Source: Candidatus Kapaibacterium sp. (GTDB lineage: Bacteria > Bacteroidota > Ignavibacteria > Kapaibacteriales > UBA2268). From it: a stretch of DNA of 64,000 nt. Shown one piece after another: positions 28,478 through 64,000 of the stretch (positions within the stretch are counted from its first letter, which is position 1; the number at the start of each line of letters is the position of its first letter). Position numbers and translations under genes: made by a program. The stretch lies in contig JAMLHE010000018.1 in the NCBI GenBank assembly GCA_023957315.1, forward strand, positions 1,616 through 65,615, in the 5' to 3' direction. The notes under the pieces are model-generated. The model ran no database searches and was not told the origin of the DNA. It worked only from the letters and a program-made list of their open reading frames with translations.

Positions 28478-28534
28478 GAAGCATTTTGGCATATATAAAC
28501 TAATTAACAATAGTTCTTAGGAGACCGAGTAATT

Positions 28535-29341: not shown

Positions 29342-29370
29342 CGAAAAGCAACTTGATAATTTATTAACAT

Positions 29371-29392
29371 AGCCCACGAATTCATTCGTGGG
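29371..29392 (+). repeat. Hairpin family member 4 (terminator-like, after the 28535 ORF)
   Basis: Perfect 8-bp stem CCCACGAA / TTCGTGGG with a TTCA loop. Confidence 0.6.
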
Positions 29393-29494
29393 ATAATGAT
29401 TTTGATTGTTCCCAAAACTAAACAAAAAATTTGTATTTGAATTGTCGCGAAAATATTTATTTTTGTATTATCTTTTCAAATTTCGAGGTTTATA

Positions 29495-30049
29495 ATGAAT
29501 CATATAGTTATTATGATTAGTATGCTTATTTTAATAACAAGTTCAATATTTGGGCAAAGTGTCAAACTTACAACTGATAAAGACTATTATGAATTCGACG
29601 AAATTATTAAAGTTGAAATTACAATTGATTTTAAAGAAGATTCGGTATTGATGCCGGATTTCGAGAGTTTTGTGATTGTATATGGTCCAACAACATCATC
29701 CTCTATGACTATAACAAGTGGAAAAACTTCAAGAACAACTACTTGGAATTATCATTTACGTCCAATTGTTGGTGGTAATCAAACAATTAATTCTCCGGTT
29801 TTCATTTTTAAAGACGAGACTTATCAAGACAATGACAAAAGCATCAGCATATCCGATGGTAGTTTGGGTAAACAAGAATTGGAAAGGCTTAAATTTGAAC
29901 ATTTCATTGACTTGGCTAAGCCTAATGATACGTATAGATATACGATTGGAGATGAGTTTGGTTATATAGAGATTCGTAGTAAAGGTAATTGGATAATACA
30001 CCGAAGGTTGACAAAAGATGAAATGGATATAATTCGAAAAGTAGAATGA
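29495..30049 (+). CDS. Hypothetical secreted protein
   Basis: 184 aa. N-terminal signal-like segment IVIMISMLILITSSIFGQ. SD GAGG 8 nt upstream. No recognisable motif. Confidence 0.45.
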   Translation: MNHIVIMISMLILITSSIFGQSVKLTTDKDYYEFDEIIKVEITIDFKEDSVLMPDFESFVIVYGPTTSSSMTITSGKTSRTTTWNYHLRPIVGGNQTINSPVFIFKDETYQDNDKSISISDGSLGKQELERLKFEHFIDLAKPNDTYRYTIGDEFGYIEIRSKGNWIIHRRLTKDEMDIIRKVE

Positions 30050-44654: not shown

Positions 44655-44676
44655 AGTATTTAAAACTTAATTTAAA

Positions 44677-44700
44677 GGGAGCAAATGCTCCCTTTTTTTT
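44677..44700 (+). terminator. pckA Rho-independent terminator
   Basis: GGGAGC-AAAT-GCTCCC followed by T8. Confidence 0.7.
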
Positions 44701-44901
44701 GTGAAATACCGCAAAGCACGATTAGCACTTATTCATTGTTAGATTAACATAAAGCATAAGTGCGTCTTGCACATACATTTTGCCTCGAAATCTCCCAAAA
44801 TGAAAATTATTTAATATAACAAATGCCGATTTCATTAGGATTGAATAGATTCCTTTCTTACATTTGTAAGTTAAATAAATTTGATTGGAGTCCGAGAAAT
44901 T

Positions 44902-47169: not shown

Positions 47170-47342
47170 CATATTCCATCTGTTTAGTAACTTATAATTA
47201 TACATTTCATTGAATATAAATATAAAGTTCACATAAACTTTATTAAAGTTAATTATACGTTGTAATGTTAATATAAATTAATTGGAAAAAATGAATATAT
47301 AGCATATTTTTGTAGTTTGCAAATAAATTAGGGTAAACTAAA

Positions 47343-48506
47343 TTGGAGCAGATTACAAATGTTATTCTTGACAATGCCAGACAATTAGGAGATTCTCATG
47401 CTGACGATTTCATAAGTGAAGTTGTTAAAAAGCATGAATTAAAGGAGATTAATGTTTTCTTCAAATCATTGGTTTACAACAACCAATTGCACAAACCCGG
47501 CATCCCGTCAGACTTCACTGACTATGTAAATAAAAACTCAAGTCTTCCTGCTTGGGCTGACAAATCAAAAATCGAAATTGCCCAAAATGCTTTCACTCGA
47601 ATTGGACCCGTTTTCGTAGTTTCCTATTTTTGCAAATCACTCCCGGAATGTTACGCTTGTGGCAAAGGTGCCGAAGTCTTGTATAAAACGGGACGTCTGA
47701 CCACCCATACCCGAAGACGTGTAGCCCAAACTGCACAATTTGTTCTTGATGTAATGTCACCCGGAGGATTGGAAGAAAATGGGCGAGGCATTGCAACATC
47801 ACTCAAAGTTAGACTGATGCACGCCTCAATCAGATATTACTTTATGAATGAGGTAAATCGCGGGAAAATCGAATACGATCCGAATAATTACGGTTACCCG
47901 ATTAATCAGGAAGATTTGTTAGGCACAATGCTCGCATTTTCTTGCGTGGTTATAGAAGGAATGGAACGTCTTGGTTTCACGATTTCTGTAGCTGAAAAGG
48001 ACGCAATATTGCATTTGTGGAAATGTGTCGGGTATCTGATTGGCATTGACGAGAAATTAATGCCGATTGACTATCATACAGCGCTCCAAACTTGGCAAAT
48101 GATTACCGAAAGACATTTTAAACCCACGATGGCAGGAAGTGACCTCACTAATCTATTGGTAGAATTTTTAGATGAAATATTGCATGAAAAGTATTTATAT
48201 GATGTAGTGCCGATTATGATGCATAGACTTTTGGGCGACAATACTACAAAACTTGTCGGGGTTCGTACTCCGAAATTATACAATCCAATTGCTGTTATCT
48301 CATTTATATTAGGTATATGGCTATTGAAATTCGAAAGTCGAGGTTTTATTTCTAAAATAACTTCACATTACGTGAATATGAAACTTATGATTGGTTTGGA
48401 AAAATATATAGCCGAAGGCGAAGATACCGGCATATATATTCCTCCAAGTCTTCGTAAAGATTGGCAATTAGACAATCATTTGCAATCATTATTTAAAAAG
48501 AGGTAA
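47343..48506 (+). CDS. DUF2236/MpaB-like oxygenase family protein (tentative)
   Basis: 387 aa, TTG start (uncertain). The segment VRLMHASIRYY and the overall helical composition recall DUF2236. Family call is from memory only. Confidence 0.5.
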   Translation: MEQITNVILDNARQLGDSHADDFISEVVKKHELKEINVFFKSLVYNNQLHKPGIPSDFTDYVNKNSSLPAWADKSKIEIAQNAFTRIGPVFVVSYFCKSLPECYACGKGAEVLYKTGRLTTHTRRRVAQTAQFVLDVMSPGGLEENGRGIATSLKVRLMHASIRYYFMNEVNRGKIEYDPNNYGYPINQEDLLGTMLAFSCVVIEGMERLGFTISVAEKDAILHLWKCVGYLIGIDEKLMPIDYHTALQTWQMITERHFKPTMAGSDLTNLLVEFLDEILHEKYLYDVVPIMMHRLLGDNTTKLVGVRTPKLYNPIAVISFILGIWLLKFESRGFISKITSHYVNMKLMIGLEKYIAEGEDTGIYIPPSLRKDWQLDNHLQSLFKKR

Positions 48507-48510
48507 ATCT

Positions 48511-49176
48511 ATGGATAATTTGCTAAATCTTCAAAATTTGAATCTACCTCAAATGATTCTATTTATAATTGGATGTATTTTTTGGCTGCTTACATATATA
48601 ATCTATATTAAAAATATCAAATCCAAACAATTTGTAGAGATTCCACTAATAGTTGTCTGCCTGAATATTGCTTGGGAATTCATTTGGAGCTTTCCATTCG
48701 GTAGCTCTGTGGGCGACTATATGGGAACTTCGATTCAAATAGGCTATAGTTTGTGGTTTTTCTTTGATTGTTTCATATTTTGGGGAATTTTGAAATATGG
48801 TTACAAACAGTTCCAAAACCCATTCTTTCGCGATAATTCTAAAATAGTAGCTATCATCACTGTTATTTTTGGATTGATATTTTTCTATACATTTAAAAAT
48901 GCCGGATACGATACAGAAATTGGAACAATTTCAGCATACCTCGACAATATTATGATTTCAGCATTATACATATTCCTATTTGTCAATCATGCCGATAAAT
49001 CGCTCTTCTCATATCATGTAGCTTGGTATAAAATGCTCGGGACTGGTTTAATATCAGTTGCTTTAGTTTGGCATTGGAACGAAAATTATTTTCTGATGTT
49101 CATCACAACGGTAGTTCTGCTGTTAGATATTTATTACGTATTCATTGTGCATAAAAGGAGGAAATCCCTCAAATGA
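48511..49176 (+). CDS. Polytopic integral membrane protein (about 6-7 TM), unknown function
   Basis: 221 aa, highly hydrophobic and aromatic-rich (AWEFIWSFPFG, WFFFDCFIFWG). Starts 4 nt after the previous stop. Its stop overlaps the next start (ATGA at 49173-49176). Confidence 0.6.
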   Translation: MDNLLNLQNLNLPQMILFIIGCIFWLLTYIIYIKNIKSKQFVEIPLIVVCLNIAWEFIWSFPFGSSVGDYMGTSIQIGYSLWFFFDCFIFWGILKYGYKQFQNPFFRDNSKIVAIITVIFGLIFFYTFKNAGYDTEIGTISAYLDNIMISALYIFLFVNHADKSLFSYHVAWYKMLGTGLISVALVWHWNENYFLMFITTVVLLLDIYYVFIVHKRRKSLK

Positions 49177-50600
49177 ACAAGAGTTTCATAAAGAATATTA
49201 CCACAAAAGGCGTAAAGCCCGGAATGACAGCTCATGAAGAAAAGGGTGTAATTATAACAAATTACATACTTTTACTGGCTTCCGGTGTCGCCTTTTTGCG
49301 TATCTTTTTGTTTTTATATACAAGTGATTTCTATCACAGTTTGATTTCAATAGCTTCAACTGTGCTATTTCTATTCGCATATTATATGAATACAAAGCAG
49401 TATTATGATTTTGCTAAATTTTTTCTAATGGTATCAGGTACTGCAGGTCCATTAATGAAGGAATTAATGTCCGGCGGAACAGGAAATCAACACTTTCTCA
49501 CTATAGCAAGTTTTGGTGTAGTTTTTTTATTGTTCAGTTTAAAAGATAAAGTCAAACTGATAATAGCACTTATGCTGCCTACATCCAGTATTATCATCAC
49601 AATATTTTTCCCCAATATCATTTCCGAACCAATAATCTTATCTCCCGAAACGATGAAAATGGAGAAATTTTTTGGAGTAATGTCGGCAAGTATTATTATT
49701 GTGTTTGTCATATGGTATTTCGTCAAACAAAGCGCCAATAGCGAATTAAAGTTAATAAGTTCAAACGATTTACTACAGAAATTCAATAATGAAATTTCTG
49801 AGCAAAAAGCATTGATTGAAGAGCAACATAGGGCACTCACGGCTTCAATTCAATATGCGAAAGATATTCAGTCCGTCATATTACCTTCAAAAACAGAACT
49901 CAATGCCTTGTTCCCCGACAATATTATATTCTACAAACCAAAAGATGTCGTTTCCGGTGATTTTTATTGGTTTGCCGAAACCCGAGATTGGAGATTTATC
50001 GCAGTGGTTGATTGTACAGGGCATGGCGTTCCCGGAGCATTCATGTCAATGATTGGCAATGATTTGCTTAACCAAATTGTAATTTTGCAAGGAATCACAA
50101 AGCCTTCTGTTATATTGCGAATGTTGCACGAAGGAGTCCGAACTACTCTAAAGCAAGATGTAGAAGATTCTCGGCAAATGGATGGCATGGAGGTTTGCTT
50201 GCTTGCTTTCGATAAAACGCAAAAGAAAGTTGTCTTTTCAGGTGCAAAAAGACCATTGTGGATAATCCGATTCGAAAATGGGAAAAAGAAATTTGTAGAA
50301 CTTAAGGGTGACAAACACTCCATCGGGGGACGCCAGAAAGAGGAAGAGCGGACTTTCACAGATTACAATCTCGATTTTGAAGACGAAAGTCTTATGCTCT
50401 ATCTCACAACTGACGGCTTCGCCGACCAAATGAACGAATCCGGAAAGAAATACGGTTCTAAACGTTTCACTGAGCTTTTAAATTCAATCGCTGATAATCC
50501 ATTATCAGAACAATATACAATCTTGAGTAATGAACTCGCCGCTCACCAAGGTGACAAGCACCAAATTGATGATATAACAATAATAGGGGTGAGGATATGA
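49173..50600 (+). CDS. Unit 2: polytopic-membrane N-terminal domain fused to a PP2C/SpoIIE-type phosphatase (no TPR)
   Basis: 475 aa, about 5-6 TM helices, coiled linker, IQYAKDIQSVILP. Then VVSGDFYWF, VDCTGHGVPGA, MDGMEV, LTTDGFADQ, QIDDITIIGVRI. Confidence 0.8.
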   Translation: MNKSFIKNITTKGVKPGMTAHEEKGVIITNYILLLASGVAFLRIFLFLYTSDFYHSLISIASTVLFLFAYYMNTKQYYDFAKFFLMVSGTAGPLMKELMSGGTGNQHFLTIASFGVVFLLFSLKDKVKLIIALMLPTSSIIITIFFPNIISEPIILSPETMKMEKFFGVMSASIIIVFVIWYFVKQSANSELKLISSNDLLQKFNNEISEQKALIEEQHRALTASIQYAKDIQSVILPSKTELNALFPDNIIFYKPKDVVSGDFYWFAETRDWRFIAVVDCTGHGVPGAFMSMIGNDLLNQIVILQGITKPSVILRMLHEGVRTTLKQDVEDSRQMDGMEVCLLAFDKTQKKVVFSGAKRPLWIIRFENGKKKFVELKGDKHSIGGRQKEEERTFTDYNLDFEDESLMLYLTTDGFADQMNESGKKYGSKRFTELLNSIADNPLSEQYTILSNELAAHQGDKHQIDDITIIGVRI

Positions 50601-52744
50601 GAAATTTGATAATATTTTTCGTAGGATTCTTTTCTTTAGTAAATATAAGCTTAGCCCAACTTGAGGGTCAAGCGAGAATAGATTCACTCCTTAAAGAGCT
50701 ACCTAAAATAAAGGAAGATACAAATGCGGTGAATTTACTTTCAGAGCTATCATTTTTATACTATTCAATTAATCCGGATAAAGGTATTGAATTCGGAAAT
50801 AAAGGATTAAAAATTTCCGGAAAAATTAATTGGAAGGAAGGAGAAGCAAAGTGTTATAGTTCGTTAGGTGTGAATTATGTAGGAGGGAAATCTGACCCTT
50901 CAAGAGCACTTGAATATTTCACTATAGCTCTCAAAATTGATGAAAAATTTGGCAATATAGCCGGTATTGCCAGACATCTGGGAAATATTGGAATAATTTT
51001 TGAGAATCAGTCTGACTATCTAAAAGCTCTTGAATATTATCAAAAGGCTCTTAAAATTGATGAAAAATTAAATAATAGAGCCGGTATTGCCAGACATCTA
51101 GGAAATATTGGACTTATTTATGATTATCAAGCCGACTATCCAAAAGCTCTTGAATATCATTATAAGTCACTCGACATCGAAAAAGAGATGGGGAATAAGC
51201 CTGGGATTTCAATGAGCTTTGCAAATATTGGAATCATATATAAGAATCAATCCGATTACCCAAAAGCCATTGAGTATTTCCATAAAGCCCTTAAAATGGA
51301 TGATGAAATTGCCAATAAATCTGGAATTGCATCAAATCTTGATAACTTAGGAACAATTTATACATACCAATTAGATTACCCCAAAGCACTCGAATATTAT
51401 CATAAAGCACTAAAAATCAACGAAGAGATAGGTAATAAATTTAGAATAGCTGTAAATCTTGAAAATATTGGGAGCGTTTATTTCTTTTTATCCCAAGATT
51501 CAACATTTGAAAATAGCGAACCTATAACACAAGTATTTCTAAATAGTGATTTTTATTTAAATAAATCCATTGAATTATCGGAAAAAGCTCTTAAGATTTA
51601 TATTGAAATTGGTGCAATTTACAACTATTCAAATTTGTTACATTCACTCTCCGAATCATACAAATTTAAAGGCAACTATAAAAAAGCTTTCGAAGCATTT
51701 AAAGAATATAAAGCATTACAAGATTCAGTTTTTTCTATGGATAAGCAAAAGGAAATAGCTAATCTCGAAGCGATTCGCGAAAATGAATTAAAAGATGCTG
51801 AAATAACAATTTTAAATACGCAGAAGAAGGCGCAACAGTTTCAATCATACTTGCTTGGCGGTGGAGCGATAGTTCTTTTAGGGGCTTTTTGGTAATGCCT
51901 TCCTACGTTTTCGCGAAAAGAAAAATTGAGCGACAAACTTGCAATTCAAAATAATGAAATTGAAAATCAGAAATTATTAGTAGAGGGAAAAAAGTAGAGG
52001 AAATCTACGCATCAATTAGGTATGCATCAACAATTCAGAATGCGATACTGCCTTGGGACGCTACATTAGGCAAGGCTTTTAGTGATGTCATGGTTTTCTT
52101 CAAGCCCAAAGATATTGTCTCAGGTGATTCGTATTGGTTCAAAGAAGTGGACGGAGTCAAGTTTTGAGGCGGTCGTAAGGTGCACGGGGCACGGCATTCC
52201 GGGAGCGATGCTAACTGTAATTGCCTCTACAGCCTTGGATGATGCCGTTCTTGGCAAGAGATTAAGCGACCCGGTAGAAATACTTACATATATAAATGAA
52301 AAAGTAACAGAAGTATTAAATCAAAAATTAGCTGAAAACAATATTCGCGACGGAATGGAAGTCGCACTACTCGCCATTCATCAAGATAAGATTAAGTTTT
52401 CAGGTGCCGGTCGACCTTTGTATCTCAAGAATGGCACATTGGAAATCATCAAAACCGACAAACGGGGCATAGCCGGAAGCACAAAGAATGATGAATATCA
52501 ATTCAATTCTGTTGAAATCGAAAAATCAGAAAATATTACACTTTACCTAACTACGGACGGATTTGCCGACCAAATGAACGAAGACGGCAAAAAATTCAGC
52601 ACCCGCCGCTTTTTGGCATTACTCGAATCAATTGCCGATAAGCCACTATCGGAACAATATAAAATATTAAACAATGAACTCGCAGCTCATCAAGGCGAAA
52701 AACACCAAATTGACGACATAACAATAATAGGGGTAAGGATATGA
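50597..52744 (+). pseudogene. Unit 3: TPR-TM-PP2C paralog disrupted by clustered indels (or a local consensus error)
   Basis: The ORF 50597-51895 (TPR part) stops inside the TM helix (..LLGAFW*). The PP2C part resumes as ORF 52082-52744. Aligned by eye to unit 5 (56295-56607), the 51886-52180 stretch shows at least 5 indels plus substitutions. The flanks are identical to paralogs. Confidence 0.7.
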
Positions 52745-55002
52745 GAAATTTGATTATATTTTTCGTAATGTTTTTTGTAGCAGTAAACATAAGCTTTGCA
52801 CAACTTCAGGGACAAGCGAAAATAGATTCGCTGAAAGCGGAGTTGCCAAAATCAAAGCAGGACACTAACCATGTCAACTTGCTCGCGGATTTATCTTTTT
52901 TATACAATTCAATTAACCCTGATGAAGGAATTAAATATGGCGAGCAAGGACTAAAACTTGCTGAAAAGATTGGTTGGAAAGAAGGTATAGAAAGGTGTTA
53001 TAGCTCATTAGGTGATAGTTTTATGGATAAATCCGACTACACTATAGCTCTTGGATATTATCACAAAGCACTAAAAATTAATGAAGAATTGGGGAATGAA
53101 CAAAATGTCGCAGGTTTCCTTAATAATATTGGACTTGCTTATTATTACCAATCCGATTATCTCAAATCTCTTGAATCTTTTCACAAAGCACTTAAAATGT
53201 TTGAAGAATTGGAGAATAAATCTGGAGTTTCACTAATTCATGGAAATATTGGAATGATTTATTATTCTCAATCCGACTATCCAAAAGCTATTGAGTATTA
53301 TCACAAAGCACTTAAAATTCATGAAGAAACAGAAAATAAACGAGGAATTGCGGGCACTCTTCACAATATGGGAATGATTTATTCTGACCAATCTGACGGA
53401 TATAGAGCATTAGAGTATTACCTCAAAGCACTTAAAATTAATGAAGAAATAGACAATAAAAATTGGATTGCATATAATCTTGAAGCTATTGGAGTTGTTT
53501 ATAATTCACAATCTGACTACCCAAAAGCTATAGAGTATTATCATAAAGCACTTGAAATTAATGAAGAACTGGGTAATAAATATGGGATTCAAAGTAATCA
53601 TTTAAATATTGGTAATATTTTTATGACGCAATCCGACTACCCAAAAGCACTTGAGTTTTTTCATAAAGCAATTGAAATTAACGAAGAAATAGGACGTATA
53701 TCAGGAATTGCTTTAGGTTTGGGACAAATTGGAGGACTGTATTTAAAAATATCTAAAGATTCAAATATGGTGAACAGTGAAAACAATTTGCAATTAATGC
53801 TAAATAAAGAGATTAATTTGAATAAAGCTATTGAATATTCTCAACAAGCCATTAATCTATACCAAGAAATCGGTGAATTGTATTATCAATTATTTATTTT
53901 AAATAACCTCTCCGAAGCTTATGAACTAAAAGGTGATTACAAAAAAGCATTTGAGGCATTCAAAGAATTTAAAACCTTGCAAGATTCTGTATTCTCGATG
54001 GATAAGCAAAAGGAAATTGCAAATCTTGATGCAAAACGGGAAAATGAGCTTAAAGATGCTGAAATCATCATTTTAAATACAGAGAAAAAAGCACAACAAT
54101 TTCAATCGTATTTGTTGGGAGGCGGAGTAATCGTTCTTCTGGGAGCTTTTGGAATTGCCTTCCTACGTTTTCGAGAAAAGAAAAAATTGAGTGATAAACT
54201 TACAATTCAAAATAATGAAATTGAAAATCAGAAATTATTAGTAGAGGAGAAAAGCGAAGAAATTTATGCATCGATTCGGTACGCTTCTACAATCCAAAAT
54301 GCGATATTGCCTTGGGACGCTACATTAGGCAAGGCTTTTAGTGATGTCATGGTTTTCTTCAAGCCCAAAGATATTGTCTCAGGTGATTCGTATTGGTTCA
54401 AAGAAGTGGACGGAGTCAAGTTTTTGGCGGTCGTAGATTGCACGGGGCACGGCATTCCCGGAGCAATGCTGACTGTTATTGCCTCTACAGCCTTGGATGA
54501 TGCGGTTCTTGGCAAAAGATTAAGCGACCCGGCTGAAATTCTTACATATATAAATGAAAAAGTTACAGACGTGCTCAATCAGCGTTTATCAGAAAATCAA
54601 ACACGCGACGGAATGGAAGTCGCACTACTCGCCATTCATCAAGATAAGATTAAGTTTTCAGGTGCCGGTCGACCGCTCTACTTAAAAAATGGCACATTAG
54701 AAATTATCAAAACCGACAAACGGGGCATAGCCGGTAGCACAAAGAATGATGAATATCAATTCAATTCTGTTGAAATCGAAAAATCAGAAAATATTACACT
54801 CTACCTCACCACCGACGGTTTTGCCGACCAGATGAACGAAGACGGCAAAAAGTTCAGCACCCGCCGCTTTTTGGCATTACTGGAATCAATTGCCGAAAAT
54901 CCTCTAAAAGAACAATATAAAAGATTAAATAACGAACTGGCAGCTCATCAAGGTGAAAAACACCAAATTGATGATATAACAATAATAGGGGTACGGTTAT
55001 GA
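52741..55002 (+). CDS. Unit 4: signal peptide-TPR-coiled coil-TM-PP2C/SpoIIE-type phosphatase
   Basis: 753 aa. MRNLIIFFVMFFVAVNISFAQ, about 7 TPR units (SDYPKA(I/L)EY(Y/F)HKAL(K/E)INEE(L/I)GN.), TM YLLGGGVIVLLGAFGIAFL, RFREKKKLSD, full PP2C motif series. ATGA overlaps at both ends. Confidence 0.88.
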   Translation: MRNLIIFFVMFFVAVNISFAQLQGQAKIDSLKAELPKSKQDTNHVNLLADLSFLYNSINPDEGIKYGEQGLKLAEKIGWKEGIERCYSSLGDSFMDKSDYTIALGYYHKALKINEELGNEQNVAGFLNNIGLAYYYQSDYLKSLESFHKALKMFEELENKSGVSLIHGNIGMIYYSQSDYPKAIEYYHKALKIHEETENKRGIAGTLHNMGMIYSDQSDGYRALEYYLKALKINEEIDNKNWIAYNLEAIGVVYNSQSDYPKAIEYYHKALEINEELGNKYGIQSNHLNIGNIFMTQSDYPKALEFFHKAIEINEEIGRISGIALGLGQIGGLYLKISKDSNMVNSENNLQLMLNKEINLNKAIEYSQQAINLYQEIGELYYQLFILNNLSEAYELKGDYKKAFEAFKEFKTLQDSVFSMDKQKEIANLDAKRENELKDAEIIILNTEKKAQQFQSYLLGGGVIVLLGAFGIAFLRFREKKKLSDKLTIQNNEIENQKLLVEEKSEEIYASIRYASTIQNAILPWDATLGKAFSDVMVFFKPKDIVSGDSYWFKEVDGVKFLAVVDCTGHGIPGAMLTVIASTALDDAVLGKRLSDPAEILTYINEKVTDVLNQRLSENQTRDGMEVALLAIHQDKIKFSGAGRPLYLKNGTLEIIKTDKRGIAGSTKNDEYQFNSVEIEKSENITLYLTTDGFADQMNEDGKKFSTRRFLALLESIAENPLKEQYKRLNNELAAHQGEKHQIDDITIIGVRL

Positions 55003-57146
55003 GAATATTAATATTAATTCTAACACTTGTATTTATGATAAATACAGCAAAATCTCAATTGAGTGGACGATCGAAAATTGATTCGCTTCTTAAGGAATTA
55101 CCAAAAGGAAAGCAAGACACAAATCATGTGAAATTGCTCGCTGATTTATCTTTCGAATATTATCGAATTGACCCAGACACAGGAATTGAGTATGGGGAAA
55201 AGGGCTTAGAACTCGCAAAAGAAATAGACTGGAAAGAAGGCGAAGCATACTGCTATAATTCCCTTGGAACTAATAATGTTGGAAAATCTGATTACCCGAA
55301 AGCATTAGAAATTTTTCATAAATCTTTGAAAATTAATGAAGAATTGGGAAAGAAATCAAACATAGCTAATAATCTTGGAAATATGGGAGTTATTTACAGC
55401 TCTCAATCAGATTACCCAAAAGCATTAGAATATTTTCATAAAGCACTGAAAATTAATGAAGAATTGGGAAGGAAACCAAATATAGCTAATAATCTTGGTA
55501 ATATTGGTAATATTTACTCCGAACAATCAGATTACCCGAAAGCATTAGAATATTTACATAAAGCTCTTAAAATTAATGAAGAGATGGGAAATAAATCCGG
55601 TATAGCTTCAAATCTTGCTAATATTGGTAATATTTACTCCGAACAATCAGATTACCCGAAAGCATTAGAATATTATCATAAAGCTCTGAAAATTAATGAA
55701 GAGTTGGGGAATAAATCACGAATTGCAAATAATTTAATAAATATGGGTTCATTATTCACATCAATGGGTGAACTTGATAAATCATTAGATTATTTAAAAC
55801 GAGGATTAAAATTAAATATTGAAATTCAGAATCATAGGCAGACTGCTTATACTTTAAATATGCTTGCCGGTAATTATATAAATCAAGCAAAAATGTACGA
55901 TTCTGTAAGAACAATAGGAGAATCGAAAGATTATTTAGTTGACAGTAAAATAGAAAACAGCTATCAGTCAGCATTGCAATTTGCGAAAGAAGCAGAACAT
56001 CTTGCCGACAGTATTGGACTTGCTGAATTGCAACCTAAAATATTTCATAATTTATATGAGGCATATAAAAAATTAAATGAACCGGCAAAAGCTCTTGAAT
56101 ATCACGAAAAATATACTATTATGAATGATTCCATTTTCAGCATGGACAAATCCAAAGAAATTGCTAATCTCGAAGCGATTCGCGAAAATGAATTAAAAGA
56201 TGCTGAAATAACAATTTTAAATACGCAGAAGAAGGCGCAACAGTTTCAATCATACTTGCTTGGCGGTGGAGCGATAGTTCTTTTAGGGGCTTTTGGTATT
56301 GCCTTCCTACGTTTTCGCGAAAAGAAAAAATTGAGCGACAAACTTGCAATTCAAAATAATGAAATTGAAAATCAGAAATTATTAGTAGAGGAAAAAAGTG
56401 AGGAAATCTACGCATCAATTAGGTATGCATCAACAATTCAGAATGCGATACTGCCGTGGGACGCTACATTAGGCAAGGCTTTTAGTGATGTCATGGTTTT
56501 CTTCAAGCCCAAAGATATTGTCTCAGGTGATTCGTATTGGTTCAAAGAAGTGGACGGAGTCAAGTTTTTGGCGGTCGTAGATTGCACGGGGCACGGCATT
56601 CCGGGAGCGATGCTAACTGTAATTGCATCTACAGCTCTGGATGATGCGGTTCTTGGCAAAAGATTAAGCGACCCGGCTGAAATTCTTACATATATTAATG
56701 AAAAAGTAACAGACGTGCTCAATCAACGTTTATCAGAAAATCAAACACGCGACGGAATGGAAGTAGCGCTAATTGCTATTCATCAAGATAAAATTCAGTT
56801 CTCCGGCGCCGGGCGACCTTTGTATCTCAAGAATGGCACATTGGAAATAATCAAAACCGACAAACGGGGCATAGCCGGTAGCACAAAGAATGATGAATAT
56901 CAATTCAATTCTATTGAAATCGAAAAATCAGAAAATATTACACTTTACCTAACTACGGACGGATTTGCCGACCAGATGAACGAAGACGGCAAAAAATTCA
57001 GCACGCGCCGCTTTTTGGCATTACTGGAATCAATTGCCGAAAATCCTCTAAAAGAACAATATAAAATATTAAATAACGAACTCGCAGCTCATCAAGGTGA
57101 CAAGCACCAAATTGATGATATAACAATAATAGGAGTGAGGATATGA
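54999..57146 (+). CDS. Unit 5: signal peptide-TPR-coiled coil-TM-PP2C/SpoIIE-type phosphatase
   Basis: 715 aa, same architecture. ATGA overlaps at both ends. Contains near-perfect 120-bp internal TPR repeats. Confidence 0.88.
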   Translation: MRILILILTLVFMINTAKSQLSGRSKIDSLLKELPKGKQDTNHVKLLADLSFEYYRIDPDTGIEYGEKGLELAKEIDWKEGEAYCYNSLGTNNVGKSDYPKALEIFHKSLKINEELGKKSNIANNLGNMGVIYSSQSDYPKALEYFHKALKINEELGRKPNIANNLGNIGNIYSEQSDYPKALEYLHKALKINEEMGNKSGIASNLANIGNIYSEQSDYPKALEYYHKALKINEELGNKSRIANNLINMGSLFTSMGELDKSLDYLKRGLKLNIEIQNHRQTAYTLNMLAGNYINQAKMYDSVRTIGESKDYLVDSKIENSYQSALQFAKEAEHLADSIGLAELQPKIFHNLYEAYKKLNEPAKALEYHEKYTIMNDSIFSMDKSKEIANLEAIRENELKDAEITILNTQKKAQQFQSYLLGGGAIVLLGAFGIAFLRFREKKKLSDKLAIQNNEIENQKLLVEEKSEEIYASIRYASTIQNAILPWDATLGKAFSDVMVFFKPKDIVSGDSYWFKEVDGVKFLAVVDCTGHGIPGAMLTVIASTALDDAVLGKRLSDPAEILTYINEKVTDVLNQRLSENQTRDGMEVALIAIHQDKIQFSGAGRPLYLKNGTLEIIKTDKRGIAGSTKNDEYQFNSIEIEKSENITLYLTTDGFADQMNEDGKKFSTRRFLALLESIAENPLKEQYKILNNELAAHQGDKHQIDDITIIGVRI

Positions 57147-59779
57147 GAAAATTGATAATACTATCCGTAATGTTTTGTGCAGTAGTAAATATTAGCTTAG
57201 CCCAGTTGCGTGGTCAGGCAAGAATTGACTCCCTTATTATGGTACTACCCAAAATGAAGGAGGATACTAATGCAGTGAATTTATTGGCTGATTTATCATT
57301 TTTATACAATTCAATTAATCCTGATGAAGGCATTAAATATGGCGAGCTAGGACTAAAACTTGCTGAAAAACTAAAATGGAAATTTGGTAAAGCTAACTGT
57401 TACAACTCTATTGGGCTAAATTATGCCGAGCTCAACGATTACCACAAAGCGTTGGATTTTTACCACAAAGCACTGGAATTGAATGAGGAGATTGATTATT
57501 TACAACAAGCTGCTGGAAATTTAAACAATATTGGAATAGTTTACAGATACTTATCGGATTACTTAAAAGCGCTCGAATATTATCAAAAAGCTCTTAAAAT
57601 TTATGAAGTGCTGGGTAGTAAATCAGGTGTAGCTAGTAATCTTGGTAATATTGGTAATATTTACTCCGGTCAATCGGATTACCCTAAAGCATTAGAATTT
57701 CATTATAAAGCTCTTAAAATTAATGAGGAATTAGGTAGAAAAACTAATATTGCTAATAATCTTGGCAATATTGGAACTGTTTACTCCATTCAAGCGAACT
57801 ACCCTAAAGCATTAGAATATATTTATAAAGCTCTTAAAATTAATGAGGAATTAGGTAGAAAAACTAATATTTCAAATAATCTTTCTAATATTGGTAAGAT
57901 TTATTTACGTCAATCTGATTTCCCCAAAGCACTTGATTATTATCATAAATCGCTTAAAATTGATGAAGAATTAGGAAGTAAATCCCGCATAGCTTCAAAC
58001 CTTTTGAGAATTGGTATGACTTATTTCTATCAATCTGATTACCCCCAAGCACTTGAATATTGTCATAAAGCACTAAAAATTAATGAGGAATTAGGTGTGA
58101 AAATTAATATGGCACGTGATTTCGGAAATATTGGTATGATTTATGCATCTCAATTGCACTACTCAAAAGCATTAGACTTTTATCATAATGCTCTTAAAAT
58201 TCATGAGGAGCTGGGAGATAAAGTGAGCATAGCTTTTAATCTTGGAAATATTGGGGTTTTATATTACAGTTTATCTCAAGATACGGTTTTATCAAAAATA
58301 AGTGAAGGTACCAATCTTTTAAGTCTCAATAGAGAACTAAATCTCAATAAATCGATTGAATACTCTCTTAAATCTATTGATTTACTCAAAGAAATTGGCG
58401 AATCTGACAATCAATCAAAAACTTTAAAAAGATTATCTGATGCTTACACAGATAAAGGCGATTACAAAAAAGCATTCGAAGCATACAAAGACTATAAAGA
58501 GCTGCGAGATTCAATTTTTTCTATAGATAAGCAAAAAGAATTGGCAAATTTAGAATCCAAAAGAGAGTTAGAAATAAAGCAGAAAGAAAATCTATTGTTG
58601 ATTAAAGATAACCAATTGTTCAATGCAGAATTAATTCAAAAGAATCAAAAAATTAATTTAGCTGAAAAAGAAAAAGAACTCCAGCATCTTGCATTTTTGA
58701 AAGAACAAGCCGAGAGGCAAGAGAAAGAGCAACTCTTGACATTGACTGAGACTCAAATTCAACTTCAGTCAACTCAAATCGAGTCTTTGGATAAAGAAAA
58801 AGAGATACAAAATGCAGAGCTAAAAGCAAAAAATTTACAACGAAACTTTTTTATTGCAGGCGTAATTGTTTTTATAATTTTATTCTTGTTTGCATTTATT
58901 CGTTTCCGTGAAAAGAAAAAGCTGAGCGATGAGCTTGCACTTCAAAACGCTGAAATTGAAAAACAAAAGACTATTGTTGAATCTCAAAAAGCAATTGTCG
59001 AGGAGCAAAAGTTCATACTTCAAGAAAAAAATGACCATATTTATTCTTCTGTCCAATACGCCGCTACAATTCAACAGGCGATTTTACCATGGGACAGTAT
59101 AATTAATGCTGCTTTCTCAGATATTTTAATTTTCTACAAACCGAAAGATATTGTTTCCGGTGATTCATATTGGTTCAAAGAAGTGGACGGAGTCAAGTTC
59201 CTTGCGGTCATAGATTGCACAGGGCACGGCATTCCCGGAGCAATGCTGACTGTAATTGCATCTACAGCTCTGGATGATGCGGTTCTTGGCAAAAGATTAA
59301 GCGACCCGGCAGAAATTCTTTCCTATATAAATGAAAAAGTAACAGAAGTATTAAATCAAAGATTAGCTGAAAACAATATCCGTGACGGAATGGAAGTCGC
59401 ACTACTCGCCATTCATAAAGATAAGATTAAGTTTTCAGGTGCCGGGCGACCGCTCTACCTCAAAAATGACACACTCGAAATCATCAAAACCGACAAACGT
59501 GGCATTGCAGGCAGTACAAAAAATGATTATTACCAATTCAACTCAATTGAAATCGAAAGAACCGAGGGCAAAACTCTTTACCTAACAACTGACGGCTTCG
59601 CCGACCAGATGAACGAAGACGGCAAAAAATTCAGCACCCGCCGCTTTGTGGCATTACTTGAATCAATTTCCGATAAGCCAATTCCCGAGCAACACGAATT
59701 GCTCGAAACAGAATTTAACAATCACCGCGACAACCGAGAGCAAATTGATGATATAACGATAATAGGGGTGAGGATATGA
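57143..59779 (+). CDS. Unit 6: signal peptide-TPR-extended coiled coil-TM-PP2C/SpoIIE-type phosphatase
   Basis: 878 aa. Extra ~100-aa coiled-coil segment (KRELEIKQKENLLLIKDNQ...EKEIQNAELKAKNLQ) before TM FFIAGVIVFIILFLFAFI, then RFREKKKLSD and the PP2C series. Confidence 0.88.
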   Translation: MRKLIILSVMFCAVVNISLAQLRGQARIDSLIMVLPKMKEDTNAVNLLADLSFLYNSINPDEGIKYGELGLKLAEKLKWKFGKANCYNSIGLNYAELNDYHKALDFYHKALELNEEIDYLQQAAGNLNNIGIVYRYLSDYLKALEYYQKALKIYEVLGSKSGVASNLGNIGNIYSGQSDYPKALEFHYKALKINEELGRKTNIANNLGNIGTVYSIQANYPKALEYIYKALKINEELGRKTNISNNLSNIGKIYLRQSDFPKALDYYHKSLKIDEELGSKSRIASNLLRIGMTYFYQSDYPQALEYCHKALKINEELGVKINMARDFGNIGMIYASQLHYSKALDFYHNALKIHEELGDKVSIAFNLGNIGVLYYSLSQDTVLSKISEGTNLLSLNRELNLNKSIEYSLKSIDLLKEIGESDNQSKTLKRLSDAYTDKGDYKKAFEAYKDYKELRDSIFSIDKQKELANLESKRELEIKQKENLLLIKDNQLFNAELIQKNQKINLAEKEKELQHLAFLKEQAERQEKEQLLTLTETQIQLQSTQIESLDKEKEIQNAELKAKNLQRNFFIAGVIVFIILFLFAFIRFREKKKLSDELALQNAEIEKQKTIVESQKAIVEEQKFILQEKNDHIYSSVQYAATIQQAILPWDSIINAAFSDILIFYKPKDIVSGDSYWFKEVDGVKFLAVIDCTGHGIPGAMLTVIASTALDDAVLGKRLSDPAEILSYINEKVTEVLNQRLAENNIRDGMEVALLAIHKDKIKFSGAGRPLYLKNDTLEIIKTDKRGIAGSTKNDYYQFNSIEIERTEGKTLYLTTDGFADQMNEDGKKFSTRRFVALLESISDKPIPEQHELLETEFNNHRDNREQIDDITIIGVRI

Positions 59780-62700
59780 GAAAAGCAATTATTACCCTCG
59801 CTATTTTATTGTCCATCTCTTTTTTGGGGATGACGGGCGCAAACGCCCAAAACCTAGACTCACTCTTAGGTGTTTGGAACAACAAATCCCAACCCGACTC
59901 CAACCGCGTTACCGCTTACAACGATTACATTTGGGACGGCTACCTCTTTTCCAAGCCCGACTCGGCCACAATACTAGCCGAGGCTCTGCACGCTTATGCA
60001 AAAAAGCACAGATACCCAAATGCATCAGCCCAAGGCTATAACCTTCAAGGCGCCGCAAACTACCAACAAGGCAATTACCCCAGCGCCTTGGAAAACTACG
60101 AAAAGGCTCGAGTAATAAACGAAGAACTAGGTAATAAGCGGTGGTTGGCGATGAACCTGAACAATATTGGCCTCATTTACAATATCCAAGCCGATTACCC
60201 CCGCGCCTTGGAATACTTTGAAAAGAGTCTAGCGATTGATGAAGAAAGCGGTGATAAAAACGGCATCGCAGGGAGCCTGATGAATATTGGCTTGATTTAC
60301 CAAAGCCTAGGCGATTACCCACGCGCCTTGGAATACTATGAAAAGAGTCTGGCGATTCAGGAAGAAATCGGGGATAAAAAAGGCATCGCAGGTAGCCTGA
60401 ATAATATCGGCATGATTTACAATATCCAAGCCGATTACCCCCGCGCCTTGGAATACTACGAAAAGGCTCGAGTATTAAACGAAGAACTTGGTAATAAGCA
60501 GTGGTTGTCGTACAACCTTGGCAATATTGGCGACATTTACTCTACCCAAGCCGATTACCCCCGCTCTTTGGAATACTATGAAAAGAGTCTGGCGATTCAG
60601 GAAGAAATGGGGGATAAAAACGGCATCGCAATTAGCCTGGGTAGTATTGGCATGCTCTACCAAAAACAAGGCAAGAACACCCTCGCGCTAAACTATTGCC
60701 AAAAAGCCCTAACACTTGCCGAAGAAACTGGTGCTTTAGAATGGCAAAAAAACGCCTGCCAATGCCTGTACACTAGCTACAAAGCCATGGGCAACAGCGA
60801 TAAAGCCCTGCAATATTATGAGCTTATGATTGTGGCACGCGACAGCATCTTTAATGAAGAGAATACCAAAAAGCTGGTGCAAATAGATATGCAATATGAA
60901 TTTAACCGCAAAGAAGCTGCCGCCAAAGCCGAGCAAGACAAAAAAGATGCAGTAGCTGCACAAGAAATGCAACGGCAAAAACTGGTGCGCAATGGCTTTA
61001 TAGCAGGTGCTATTGTATTTATAATATTATTCCTGATTGTATTTGTAAGGTTTCGCGAAAAGAAAAAATTGAGCGACAAACTTGCAATTCAAAATAATGA
61101 AATTGAAAATCAGAAATTATTAGTAGAGGAAAAAAGTGAGGAAATCTACGCATCAATTAGGTATGCATCAACAATTCAGAATGCGATACTGCCGTGGGAC
61201 GCTACATTAGGCAAGGCTTTTAGTGATGTCATGGTTTTCTTCAAGCCCAAAGATATTGTTTCCGGAGATTCGTATTGGTTCAAGGAAGTGGACGGAGTGA
61301 AGTTTCTGGCAGTCATAGATTGCACAGGGCATGGTATCCCCGGAGCAATGCTAACTGTAATTGCCTCTACAGCCTTGGATGATGCCGTTCTTGGCAAGAG
61401 ATTAAGCGACCCGGCAGAAATACTTACATATATAAATGAAAAAGTAACAGAAGTATTAAATCAAAAATTAGCTGAAAACAATATTCGCGACGGAATGGAA
61501 GTCGCACTACTCGCCATTCATCAAGATAAGATTAAGTTTTCAGGTGCCGGTCGACCTTTGTATCTCAAGAATGGCACATTGGAAATCATCAAAACCGACA
61601 AACGGGGCATAGCCGGAAGCACAAAGAATGATGAATATCAATTCAATTCTGTTGAAATCGAAAAATCAGAAAATATTACACTCTACCTCACCACCGACGG
61701 TTTTGCTGACCAGATGAACGAAGACGGCAAAAAATTCAGCACCCGTCGCTTTTTGGCATTACTGGAATCAATTGCCGAAAATCCTCTAAAAGAACAATAT
61801 AAAAGATTAAATAACGAACTGGCAGCTCATCAAGGTGACAAGCACCAAATTGATGATATAACAATAATGAGTGAGGATATGAGAAAATTGATAATACTAT
61901 CCGTAATGTTTTGTGCAGTAGTAAACATCAGCTTTGCTCAACTTCAAGGGCAGGCGAAAATTGATTCGCTCAAAGCGAAACTGCCAAAAGCTAAACAAGA
62001 CACAAATGCTGTGAATTTGCTTGAGCAACTATCTTTTGAATTATATTCTATCGACCCGGACAAAGGAATAGAATATGGTTTGCAAGGAGTGGAACTCGCG
62101 AAAAATTTAGGCTGGAAGGAAGGTGAAGCAAATTGTTATAATTCTTTGGGTACAAATTATGATGAAAAATCCGACTACCCAAAAGCATTAGAATATTATC
62201 ATAAAGCTTTGAAAATTTATGAGGAATTGGGAAAAAAATCTGGAGAAGCAGCAAATCTCGGAAATATTGGTCTTTTATATTCTTCTCAATCCGACTACCC
62301 GAAAGCATTAGAATATTATCATAAAGCTCTGAAAATCAGTGAAGAGTTAGGAGATAAATCTGGAATAGGAAGACAGCTTGGAAATATTGGCATTATTTAC
62401 GAAAATAAATCCGACTACCCGAAAGCATTGGAGTATTATTTGAAAGCTTTGAAAATTAATGAAGAATTGGGAAGGAAATCTGGTGTTGCTACAAATCTTG
62501 GAAATATTGGGATTATTTATGCAAATCAATCGGACTACCCCAAAGCACTTGAATATTTTCATAATGCCCTTAAAATTAATGAAGAGCTGGTAAATAAATC
62601 TGGCGTTGCCAGGCATCTTGGAAATATTGGTCTTTTATATTCTTCTCAATCCGACTACCCGAAAGCTTTAGAATATTTTCATAAAGCTCTTAAAATTAAT

Positions 62701-64000
62701 CAAGAACTGGGAAACAAAAGAGTCGAAGCGTATAATCTTGGTAATATGGGAGAATTATATTATAAGTTATCCCAAGATACGGTATTATCTCAAATAAGTG
62801 AAAGCACAATTCTTGTAAGTCTAAATAAAGAAATAAATCTCAATAGAGCGATAGATTACACACTCGAAGCGATTAAAATATTTGAAGAAATTGGGGAATT
62901 ACATATTAGATCAACTTATTTAAAAAACCTCTCAGAAGCATATAAACAAAAAGGCAATTCAGATAAAGCATTTGAGGCATTACAAGAACACATGAAACTC
63001 AAAGACTCAGTGTTTAATATGGATAAACAGAAAGAAATTGCAAATCTTGAAGCAAAACGAGAAAATGAACTTAAAGATGCCGAAATTGTAATTCTTCAGA
63101 CCGAGAAAAAAGCACAGCAGTTTCAATCTTATCTGCTTGGTGGTGGTGTGATTGTGCTTTTTGGTGCTTTTGCCCTTGCCTTTATTCGTTTTAGGGAGAA
63201 GAGAAAGCTAAGCGATGAGCTTGCACTTCAAAACGCTGAAATTGAAAAGCAGAAGACTATTGTCGAATCTCAAAAAGCAATTGTCGAGGAGCAAAAGTTC
63301 ATACTTCAAGAAAAAAATGACCATATTTATTCTTCTGTCCAATACGCCGCTACAATTCAACAGGCGATTTTACCATGGGACAGTATAATCAATGCTGCTT
63401 TCTCAGATATTTTAATTTTCTACAAACCGAAAGATATTGTTTCAGGTGATTCATATTGGTTTAAAGAGGTTGAAGGTATCAAGTTTTTGGCAGCTATTGA
63501 TTGTACAGGTCATGGCATTCCAGGAGCGATGCTGACTGTGATTGCCTCAACTGCTCTTGATGATGCCGTTCTTGGCAAGAGATTAAGCGACCCGGCAGAA
63601 ATACTTACATATATAAATGAAAAAGTAACAGAAGTATTAAATCAAAAATTAGCTGAAAACAATATTCGCGACGGAATGGAAGTCGCACTACTCTGCATTC
63701 ATCAAGATAAGATTAAGTTTTCAGGTGCCGGTCGACCTTTGTATCTCAAGAATGGCACATTGGAAATCATCAAAACCGACAAACGGGGCATAGCCGGTAG
63801 CACAAAGAATGATGAATATCAATTCAATTCTGTTGAAATCGAAAAATCAGAAAATATTACACTCTACCTCACCACCGACGGTTTTGCCGACCAGATGAAC
63901 GAAGACGGCAAAAAGTTCAGCACCCGCCGCTTTTTGGCATTACTTGAATCAATTGCCGAAAATCCTCTAAAAGAACAATATAAAAGATTAAATAACGAAC
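59776..64000 (+). CDS. Units 7+8 read as one open frame: two complete TPR-TM-PP2C modules fused in frame by a 2-nt deletion at the junction; continues past the window end
   Basis: Absent from the ORF track because there is no stop before the window end. I translated 59776-64000 manually in one frame and saw no stop. Unit 7 = 59776-61878 (MRKAIITLAILLSISFLGMTGANAQ...QIDDITIMSED). Unit 8 starts at the in-frame ATG 61879 (MRKLIILSVMFCAVVNISFAQ...) and could also be translated on its own. Confidence 0.75.
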   Translation, partial: MRKAIITLAILLSISFLGMTGANAQNLDSLLGVWNNKSQPDSNRVTAYNDYIWDGYLFSKPDSATILAEALHAYAKKHRYPNASAQGYNLQGAANYQQGNYPSALENYEKARVINEELGNKRWLAMNLNNIGLIYNIQADYPRALEYFEKSLAIDEESGDKNGIAGSLMNIGLIYQSLGDYPRALEYYEKSLAIQEEIGDKKGIAGSLNNIGMIYNIQADYPRALEYYEKARVLNEELGNKQWLSYNLGNIGDIYSTQADYPRSLEYYEKSLAIQEEMGDKNGIAISLGSIGMLYQKQGKNTLALNYCQKALTLAEETGALEWQKNACQCLYTSYKAMGNSDKALQYYELMIVARDSIFNEENTKKLVQIDMQYEFNRKEAAAKAEQDKKDAVAAQEMQRQKLVRNGFIAGAIVFIILFLIVFVRFREKKKLSDKLAIQNNEIENQKLLVEEKSEEIYASIRYASTIQNAILPWDATLGKAFSDVMVFFKPKDIVSGDSYWFKEVDGVKFLAVIDCTGHGIPGAMLTVIASTALDDAVLGKRLSDPAEILTYINEKVTEVLNQKLAENNIRDGMEVALLAIHQDKIKFSGAGRPLYLKNGTLEIIKTDKRGIAGSTKNDEYQFNSVEIEKSENITLYLTTDGFADQMNEDGKKFSTRRFLALLESIAENPLKEQYKRLNNELAAHQGDKHQIDDITIMSEDMRKLIILSVMFCAVVNISFAQLQGQAKIDSLKAKLPKAKQDTNAVNLLEQLSFELYSIDPDKGIEYGLQGVELAKNLGWKEGEANCYNSLGTNYDEKSDYPKALEYYHKALKIYEELGKKSGEAANLGNIGLLYSSQSDYPKALEYYHKALKISEELGDKSGIGRQLGNIGIIYENKSDYPKALEYYLKALKINEELGRKSGVATNLGNIGIIYANQSDYPKALEYFHNALKINEELVNKSGVARHLGNIGLLYSSQSDYPKALEYFHKALKINQELGNKRVEAYNLGNMGELYYKLSQDTVLSQISESTILVSLNKEINLNRAIDYTLEAIKIFEEIGELHIRSTYLKNLSEAYKQKGNSDKAFEALQEHMKLKDSVFNMDKQKEIANLEAKRENELKDAEIVILQTEKKAQQFQSYLLGGGVIVLFGAFALAFIRFREKRKLSDELALQNAEIEKQKTIVESQKAIVEEQKFILQEKNDHIYSSVQYAATIQQAILPWDSIINAAFSDILIFYKPKDIVSGDSYWFKEVEGIKFLAAIDCTGHGIPGAMLTVIASTALDDAVLGKRLSDPAEILTYINEKVTEVLNQKLAENNIRDGMEVALLCIHQDKIKFSGAGRPLYLKNGTLEIIKTDKRGIAGSTKNDEYQFNSVEIEKSENITLYLTTDGFADQMNEDGKKFSTRRFLALLESIAENPLKEQYKRLNNE

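Follow-up and report, generated by a model that had tools for sequence, protein, structure and literature searches.

A chimeric TPR-PP2C gene in a Candidatus Kapaibacterium array: a periplasmic sensor probably of Bacteroidia cyclase type on a resident output module

The 64,000-nucleotide stretch of Candidatus Kapaibacterium sp. DNA considered here (the window; contig JAMLHE010000018.1, positions 1,616 to 65,615 of the forward strand) carries a tandem array of genes in which an exported TPR sensor is joined through a single transmembrane (TM) helix to a SpoIIE/PP2C output module. The seventh unit of this array, U7 (59776-~61878, + strand), is chimeric by sequence comparison. Its exported part (59785-~60996) probably descends from a lineage of Bacteroidia sensors attached to class III adenylate cyclases and was most likely acquired horizontally, and its TM helix, linker and PP2C module are of the resident type. 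A sequence-only reading of the same DNA had proposed that a sensor of separate evolutionary origin was recombined onto the resident output domain. That proposal is upheld by the homology searches described below, although the join was placed incorrectly.

Relatives of the U7 sensor

The 424-residue U7 sensor was used as a homology query, with the sensor of unit 4 (U4) as the control. Full-length matches to the U7 sensor were found at 55-62% identity and were nearly all TPR-TM-class III adenylate cyclases (PF00211); the first PP2C-linked matches appeared at 43-48%. Those relatives with an organism name were labelled Cryomorphaceae, Flavobacteriales, Bacteroidia, Bacteroidales, Saprospiraceae, Chitinophagales or Crocinitomicaceae, apart from two odd labels, and there was no Kapabacteria or Ignavibacteria label among the best 120 matches or the 43 GTDB-representative loci. 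When GTDB was scanned with one genome for each species, the same taxa came back (best identity 55%); the best match in a metagenome scan was at 50%, and neither scan brought up a donor or a strain variant. The U4 control search returned the window's own protein, an 82% ortholog and then PP2C-linked proteins at 52-64%, the named relatives being Ignavibacteriae HGW-1 and HGW-4, Kapabacteria, Kapaibacteriales and Chlorobiota, with none from Bacteroidia. The closest homologs of the U7 sensor are therefore Bacteroidia TPR-cyclases rather than the neighbouring units, and they carry labels of a different taxon from those of the control; this split favours a horizontal origin.

The U7 sensor begins with a predicted signal peptide, MRKAIITLAILLSISFLGMTGANA (59776..59847, +, by translation), which contains an ANA|Q cleavage-type motif and resembles that of the cyclase homolog P0003 (MKKAFITRIILLSVSFL...); the TPR module is predicted to be exported. 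The signal peptide is followed by a non-repeat N-terminal cap (residues 25-100; 59848..60075, +; GC3, the G+C content of third codon positions, 0.47-0.67), which is the most diagnostic foreign segment. The TPR core (60076..60663, +) consists of five 40-residue repeats of two alternating subtypes, EKSLAI.EE.GDK.GIA and EKARV.NEELGNK.WL, with an internal DNA identity of 74-82%. Tandem Repeats Finder reported periods of 120/240 and 4.2 copies of the 120-nt repeat (60156-60654), and the Pfam matches to the repeats (TPR_12, E 1.1e-43; TPR_1, E 2.1e-37; also TPR_10) were above the cut-off. The last segment of foreign type is a membrane-proximal stalk (residues 297-405; 60664..60990, +) with the motif ...NEENTKKLVQIDMQYEFNRKEAAAKAEQDKKDA....

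As TPR repeats inflate similarity, the non-repeat cap and stalk were compared separately. The U7 cap is 76-83% identical to the cyclase-linked proteins P0011, P0001 and P0005, and 85.5% identical to R_10792, a protein of a sister genome discussed below; it gave no blastp match to the neighbouring units. The stalk is 77-78% identical to the cyclase-linked proteins P0065, P0028 and P0001, but only 24-31% identical to the neighbours. Over the TPR core (residues 101-296) the values were 59-63% for the best database matches, not all of which are cyclase-linked, versus 44-56% for the neighbours. At the DNA level the U7 sensor is 43-49% identical to every other sensor, and in blastn 59776-61050 did not match any other unit at more than 70%, while from 61051 onwards the identity to units 3b, 4 and 5 is 91-93%. 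The differences that had been read from the letters were reproduced: equivalent TPR positions are encoded by GATTACCCCCGCGCCTTGGAATAC at 60193/60433 and by GATTACCCAAAAGCATTAGAATAT at 55410, the other quoted strings lie at 59836 and 59893, and both the deviating repeat consensus and the deviating signal peptide are as quoted, by translation.

In a neighbour-joining tree of the stalk, U7 was nested among the cyclase-linked proteins and all other units were placed with the Kapabacteria-type set. Six matches from the U4 search that carry a PF00211 cyclase, two of them named Ignavibacteriae HGW-4 (P0180, P0217), were placed in the clade of resident sensors. When alignment columns were bootstrapped and nearest-neighbour identity was scored, U7 fell with the cyclase-linked proteins in 1000/1000 replicates; P0114 was wrongly counted on the resident side, so that the test errs only towards caution. 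The stalk was also run as an unfiltered HMMER query against 1.84 billion representatives: the top five hits matched regular-expression motifs for a class III cyclase, the sixth was PP2C-linked, and histidine kinases with the same stalk occurred lower down. On these comparisons, the U7 sensor is a member of the Bacteroidia clade of cyclase-linked periplasmic TPR sensors.

Members of this clade (P0001, P0009 'Flavobacteriales bacterium', P0015 'Bacteroidia bacterium', P0006 'Cryomorphaceae bacterium') are 55-62% identical to U7 overall and 77-83% identical in the cap and stalk. They share with U7 the signal peptide, the cap (LDSL..W...QPDS.RV.AY.DYIW.GYL.S.PD), the 40-residue repeats and the stalk (NEENTKKL.Q..MQYEF..KEA), and are similar to it in GC and GC3. 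Unlike them, U7 has no cyclase domain, and is of the resident PP2C type from the TM helix onwards: Pfam gave no PF00211 match in U7, and its C-terminal half is SpoIIE. U7 is thus not itself a cyclase, as judged from its domains; only its sensor is from the cyclase-associated lineage.

Two loci carrying homologs were also inspected. In a Bacteroidia metagenome-assembled genome (MAG; locus L046, 1-21926), the cyclase homolog P0015 (gene GC 0.469) lies within an island of GC 0.379 that also contains several DDE transposases, an integrase, an E2-CBASS-like gene, and NB-ARC/TPR and CHAT proteins, which suggests that TPR-cyclase genes travel with mobile or defence islands. In a Flavobacteriales MAG (locus L044, 1747-7740), two TPR-cyclase genes stand in tandem, followed by a TPR-AraC regulator; cyclase-linked sensors form small arrays too.

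Base composition and codon usage

The U7 sensor had been described as richer in G+C than the neighbouring units, and this was confirmed by measurement. Sliding-window GC is 0.45-0.48 across 59600-61000, compared with 0.29-0.33 in the neighbouring sensor modules. The sensor as a whole (59776-61047) has a GC of 0.450 and a GC3 of 0.509, well beyond the values of the six other TPR sensors (GC 0.31-0.34, GC3 0.227-0.287). The output modules have GC3 values of 0.29-0.39, and that of U7 itself is 0.37. The GC-rich stretch stops at ~60990, ahead of the TM helix, and not at about 61040 as had been read; the codons of the helix are AT-rich (GC3 0.27-0.30).

The compositional difference is mainly synonymous. 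TAC is used 24 times and TAT 8 times, GGC 18 times and GGA never, and CGC accounts for 8 of the 14 arginine codons. The excess is in C rather than G at third positions (C3 0.337, G3 0.172): TAC, AAC, GGC, GCC and CGC are favoured, and GAA and CAA are kept. The genes of the closest homologs match in composition (sensor GC 0.44-0.46, GC3 0.48-0.56), and the relative synonymous codon usage (RSCU) of the U7 sensor correlates at 0.48-0.78 with that of these homologs, at 0.22-0.34 with native high-GC3 genes and at -0.10 with the resident sensors.

The native reference for GC3 was the set of 32 non-array genes within the window (mean 0.369, standard deviation 0.060, maximum 0.499). Against this reference, which covers 64 kb of the host, the U7 sensor lies at about +2.3 standard deviations and marginally above the maximum. 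Composition alone was rejected as proof of foreign origin, as the native gene for PurH has the same GC3. The resident sensors (U1, U3-U6 and U8; 44881-63186) have GC3 values of 0.23-0.29, below both their own PP2C halves (0.35-0.39, with U1 as the exception at 0.29) and the gene mean of 0.37; these AT-rich sensors are about as atypical as the GC-rich U7 sensor, in the opposite direction.

Junctions of the chimera

Both ends of the foreign-type segment could be located by alignment. At the 5' junction (59776..59784, +), U7 begins with ATGAGAAAA, which is common to the resident units, and its ATGA overlaps the stop codon of U6. Foreign-type sequence follows directly (GCAATTATTACC...; bases GCAATTATT...); the cyclase genes start ATGAAAAAAGCAAT....

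At the 3' side, U7 tracks the cyclase family through ...QKLVRNGF. The TM helix that follows, FIAGAIVFIILFLIVFV (60997..61047, +), is AT-rich and of the resident unit-6 type. The cyclase homologs have a different helix, FIGGFAVVLLFAGVFF-QRNKIGKEK, where the U7 helix runs on into RFREKKKL. In a comparison over 28 residues, U7 matched U6 at 23/28 positions and the PP2C proteins P0225 and P0153 at 24/28; the helix DNA matches that of U6 at 36/48 nt. The same helix type is found in P0189, from a sister contig, and in P0184, from a Kapabacteria MAG. As the U7 helix is of the resident type, the switch in ancestry is placed by these alignments at the RNxFIAG motif (60988-61008), at the outer membrane face, between RNGF and IAG at ~60990-61000.

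The sequence-only reading had set the graft just after the TM helix, at 61051. A sensor of separate origin on the resident output is well supported, but this position was rejected on the analysis of the TM helix: 61051 instead marks where a later conversion tract, derived from a U5-like copy, has its upstream edge.

The output module and gene conversion

The remainder of U7 (61048..61878, +) encodes a cytoplasmic linker and a SpoIIE/PP2C output, and is a patchwork of tracts, each an exact match to one of the other units. The first of these tracts, a run of 209 nt in the juxtamembrane helical linker (61051..61259, +), is 100% identical to U5 (56313-56521), exactly as had been noted earlier; it was recovered by exact-run search and in mismatch maps, and has zero leftward extension. 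By its sequence it is a recent gene-conversion tract. Other identical tracts in the U7 output are shared with U3b (267 nt, 61416-61682), U8 (135 and 102 nt) and U4 (92 nt).

The U4, U5 and U7 outputs are mutually 91-93% identical, but no more than 85% identical to any output of the sister genome. Outputs more alike within a genome than between genomes imply that homogenisation went on after speciation, and the outputs of the array are, on this pattern, tandem paralogs homogenised by gene conversion.

The U7 output matches Pfam SpoIIE (PF07228; residues 510-698) with an E-value of 2.4e-19 and a score of 70.5 bits, versus a cut-off of 25. PDB entry 6k4e_A ('putative serine phosphatase') aligns over 273 residues (E 1.6e-39), and the DCTGHG, RDGME, TTDGFADQ and DDITI motifs are matched and intact; they correspond to the metal-binding Asp motifs of the family (D-x-x-GHG, DG-M-D/E, TDG...D and DD-T). 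By its output, U7 is a member of the SpoIIE/PP2C family and a predicted phosphatase. No STAS or anti-sigma partner gene was found in the window.

At the 3' end of U7 (61861..61881, +), translation and comparison of the junctions indicate that the stop codon has been lost through a 2-nt deletion (AATAAT^GAGTG versus AATAATAGGAGTG), which places U7 in frame with the ATG of U8 at 61879. U7-U8 is either a double TPR-TM-PP2C-TPR-TM-PP2C fusion or the product of a consensus or sequencing error.

The array of the sister genome

The genome of 'Ignavibacteriae bacterium HGW-Ignavibacteriae-1' contains an array that was available from three sources (L047/L048, L049 and L050). The gene order of this array follows that of the window from U1 into U3 (86.6% DNA identity). 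Its sensors are all AT-rich (GC3 0.22-0.30), except for the first ~125 codons of the 877-residue protein R_10792 (L047, 10792-13425). Residues 1-~125 of R_10792 comprise a U7-type signal peptide, cap and first repeat (GC 0.47-0.50, GC3 0.56); beyond ~125 they give way, inside a TPR repeat, to resident SDYPKALEYYHKALKINEELGNKSGIA repeats and a U5-like stalk (78% amino acid identity to U5). The DNA is 83-92% identical to U7 over the first 240 nt and drops to 75% at 60016-60135. The sister genome (R4/R5) has exactly the same 5' junction as U7, and the R_10792 sequence is identical in two independent assemblies. R_10792 thus shows, by its sequence, intragenic recombination between two sensor types.

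The presence of an orthologous cap in the sister array indicates that the module was already in the array of the common ancestor, and a recent strain-specific acquisition was rejected on the same ground. Measured over codons 1-100, signal peptide included, the synonymous divergence (dS) between U7 and R_10792 is 0.48, compared with 0.35-0.63 for flanking single-copy orthologs. The dN/dS ratio over the same codons is 0.24, and the U7-type cap is, by this measure, under purifying selection. Separately, over the first ~3.2 kb of L048 and L049 the first unit after U2 differs (728 vs 748 residues, with many mismatches) and the downstream units are identical, which implies that the array is polymorphic within the sister population.

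A proposed history

The most likely history of U7 is the following. An ancestor of the window organism and of HGW-Ignavibacteriae-1 would have taken up a Bacteroidia-type TPR-cyclase gene, or a fragment of one, by horizontal transfer. Illegitimate or micro-homology recombination would then have joined the exported part to a resident unit, with the start codon (ATGA[G/A]AAAAGCAAT) and the RNxFIAG motif as the two points of contact. Later, the PP2C modules of the array have kept swapping sequence by gene conversion, in tracts of 92-267 nt; the U7 sensor, having no homologous partner in the array, has escaped conversion and stayed distinct, its third positions still rich in C. The TPR repeats of the sister species were the site of a further recombination, which overwrote everything past repeat 1 with sequence of the resident type and left only the foreign N-terminal cap.

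As to function, the periplasmic TPR solenoid may bind a ligand or a partner, and the signal would travel along the stalk, cross the membrane in the single TM helix and reach, by way of the helical linker, a Mn/Mg-dependent PP2C, which could dephosphorylate a partner-switching (STAS-type) substrate. As the sensor lineage is normally wired to adenylate cyclases, the event would also have changed the output: U7 may route an input that is read as cyclic AMP in Bacteroidia into a phosphatase pathway of the host.

Alternative explanations

Several points weigh against a horizontal origin from Bacteroidia. No close donor was found in any collection searched, the best full-length identity being 62%, which implies either that the donor lineage is unsampled or that the event is old. 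Most matches are without an organism name, and a 'Bacteroidetes bacterium' label might conceal a member of the Kapabacteria. Sensors of the U7 type also occur with a PP2C output (P0094, 48%) or a histidine-kinase output, so the immediate donor need not have been a cyclase gene. The U7 GC3 of 0.51 lies at the top of the native range and not far beyond it (PurH, 0.50). The likeness in codon usage to the homologs is partly identity by descent, and is absent for the flanking genes of one homolog (r 0.12). Finally, given that 64 kb of the host were covered, a native U7-type TPR-cyclase paralog elsewhere in the host genome is a possible donor.

The last point is the core of the best-surviving alternative, which we regard as unlikely but worth weighing: that the U7-type subfamily is an old one inherited vertically in Kapabacteria, carried for example on a host TPR-cyclase, and that it was moved into the array by intragenomic recombination. 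Its foreign look would then reflect the lack of a homogenisation partner together with codon habits of the subfamily. Such an origin would fit a module that is older than the sister-species split, has no relative closer than the 62% ceiling and has a GC3 within the upper native range. In one Bacteroidia MAG the homolog exceeds its surroundings in GC (0.469 vs 0.379), a possible sign of a composition peculiar to the family, and the codon-usage likeness, which extends to the homolog genes and not to the genes flanking a homolog, points the same way. However, vertical inheritance in Kapabacteria is difficult to reconcile with the complete lack of Kapabacteria or Ignavibacteria labels among the best 120 matches and the 43 GTDB loci, when the control sensor gives only such labels. 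It is also at odds with the resident-type sensors borne by the cyclase-linked matches from the U4 search, including the two from Ignavibacteriae HGW-4, and with the AT-richness of all other sensors in both arrays. The sequence-only reading had left horizontal acquisition and an old divergent paralog side by side; the taxon split of the homologs favours the former, yet the event predates the split from the sister species.

It is also conceivable, though very improbable, that the module is native and owes its C-ending codons to translational selection at high expression, a process that can be accompanied by the observed excess of C3 (0.337) over G3 (0.172) with GAA and CAA retained. This would leave the protein evidence unexplained, namely a cap and stalk 77-83% identical to cyclase-linked proteins and unrelated to the neighbours; moreover, the output half of the same open reading frame has an ordinary GC3, and the RSCU correlation with native high-GC3 genes is only 0.22-0.34.

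An assembly artefact, in which the assembler built a GC-rich segment of a co-occurring Bacteroidia organism into the repeats of the array, is extremely improbable. In its favour, exact array repeats of 92-267 nt can mislead assemblers, the small indels of U3 and of the U7/U8 junction point to an imperfect consensus, and the window rests on a single assembly. Against it, the two junctions keep the reading frame and occur in sequence that no other unit has (the start codon after the U6 output, and a helix that is of U6 type but not identical), no database sequence exceeds 62% identity and could serve as a candidate contaminant, and two independent assemblies of the sister species show the same 5' junction and GC-rich cap at the corresponding place in the array. 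Horizontal acquisition of a Bacteroidia-type sensor thus remains the preferred explanation of U7.

The array and its surroundings

The array of TPR-sensor/TM/SpoIIE-PP2C paralogs lies in tandem on the + strand (44881..64000) and was delineated from the list of open reading frames, their translations and Pfam matches to TPR_12 and SpoIIE. A unit consists of a signal peptide, an N-terminal cap, 40-residue TPR repeats, a helical stalk, one TM helix, a helical linker and SpoIIE/PP2C, and most units are joined by ATGA stop/start overlaps. The first TPR-TM-SpoIIE/PP2C unit, U1 (44881-47169), is followed by two unrelated open reading frames, MpaB-like and Pyr4-like (47343-49176), and by U2 (49173-50600), which has a multi-TM sensor. 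Thereafter come U3 (50597-52744), which is disrupted, U4 (52741-55002), U5 (54999-57146), U6 (57143-59779), U7 and U8, which starts at 61879 and runs past the end of the window.

A clean terminator is present upstream of the array (44674-44695). A promoter/terminator scan of the array itself was at chance level (84 vs 74.8±7.2; 15 vs 13.6±4.2) and is uninformative on operon structure. In U3, three small indels lie in or beside homopolymer runs at 51886-51995, in surroundings ~99% identical to U5; U3 is either a pseudogene or the site of a long-read or consensus error in a repeat. The pre-stalk region of the U5 sensor (54999-56309; …NIEIQNHRQTAYTLNMLAGNYINQAKMYDSVRTIGESKDY…) is unlike that of the other resident units and groups with R_10792 on a separate branch of the stalk tree, which points to another mosaic segment in the array.

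The leucyl-tRNA synthetase encoded in the window (19943-22489) has 97% identity to its counterpart in 'Ignavibacteriae bacterium HGW-Ignavibacteriae-1' and 70-74% to Kapabacteria proteins; by this marker the host is Kapabacteria-like. Type IX secretion system sorting domains were found nearby with Pfam. Exact-sequence look-ups with two proteins of the window, U6 and PEPCK, matched no record. Elsewhere in the window, a low-GC patch (27671-30049; GC 0.29-0.35, GC3 0.24-0.36) contains a REase-ARP/PD-(D/E)XK nuclease gene and an open reading frame without a Pfam match, and is possibly a small acquired island.

Relation to known systems

It is well established that sensor and output domains are shuffled, that horizontal transfer can be sub-genic and that tandem paralogs undergo gene conversion. 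U7 is a new example of these processes, combining domain shuffling, probable sub-genic horizontal transfer and concerted evolution, and is not a new kind of system. As in genes made mosaic by sub-genic transfer, such as mosaic pbp genes, and in tandem paralogs under concerted evolution, a foreign segment sits within a resident gene, the constant parts are homogenised in sharp tracts, and the extent of the foreign segment differs in a sister genome. Unlike a homologous replacement, the junctions of U7 lie at domain boundaries between non-homologous sequences, which makes it a domain swap from a donor with another output. The literature searched offered general treatments of the shuffling of signalling domains, and nothing on this array or family.

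With the resident TPR-TM-SpoIIE/PP2C paralogs (units 1, 3-6 and 8; P0122-P0132; the HGW-Ignavibacteriae-1 array), U7 shares its architecture, the unit-6 helix, its position in the array, the ATGA coupling, and a linker and PP2C module that are 91-93% identical in DNA, with tracts at 100%. The paralogs differ from U7 in cap and stalk, which are unrelated or 24-31% identical, in sensor DNA (43-49%) and in GC3 (0.23-0.29 vs 0.51).

The catalytic domain and metal-binding motifs of U7 are like those of RsbU, SpoIIE and SiaA-type PP2C phosphatases, 6k4e being the nearest structure. The input of RsbU is an N-terminal RsbT-binding domain, and that of SiaA is of HAMP type. The input of U7 is instead predicted to be an exported TPR solenoid with a single TM helix.

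Biological significance

A broader, speculative possibility, which we consider doubtful, is that the array is a locus for the diversification of sensor cassettes, in which the homogenised PP2C modules are the 'constant' part and the start-codon and RNxFIAG junctions act as recombination anchors. If so, the cell would capture, duplicate, delete and re-mix sensor cassettes, including cassettes from other classes and output families; recombination within the TPR repeats would make hybrid sensors, of which R_10792 would be an example; and the capture of foreign modules would be recurrent in such arrays and not a one-off event.

U7 itself is well resolved at the sub-genic scale: both junctions can be traced, a sister species provides an intermediate, and homogenised outputs stand beside a sensor of other ancestry. 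The comparisons suggest that a TPR sensor and its stalk are portable between cyclase and PP2C outputs when joined at the outer membrane face, which may be of use in the design of chimeric receptors and in the annotation of the abundant, unstudied sensors of Bacteroidota and Kapabacteria.

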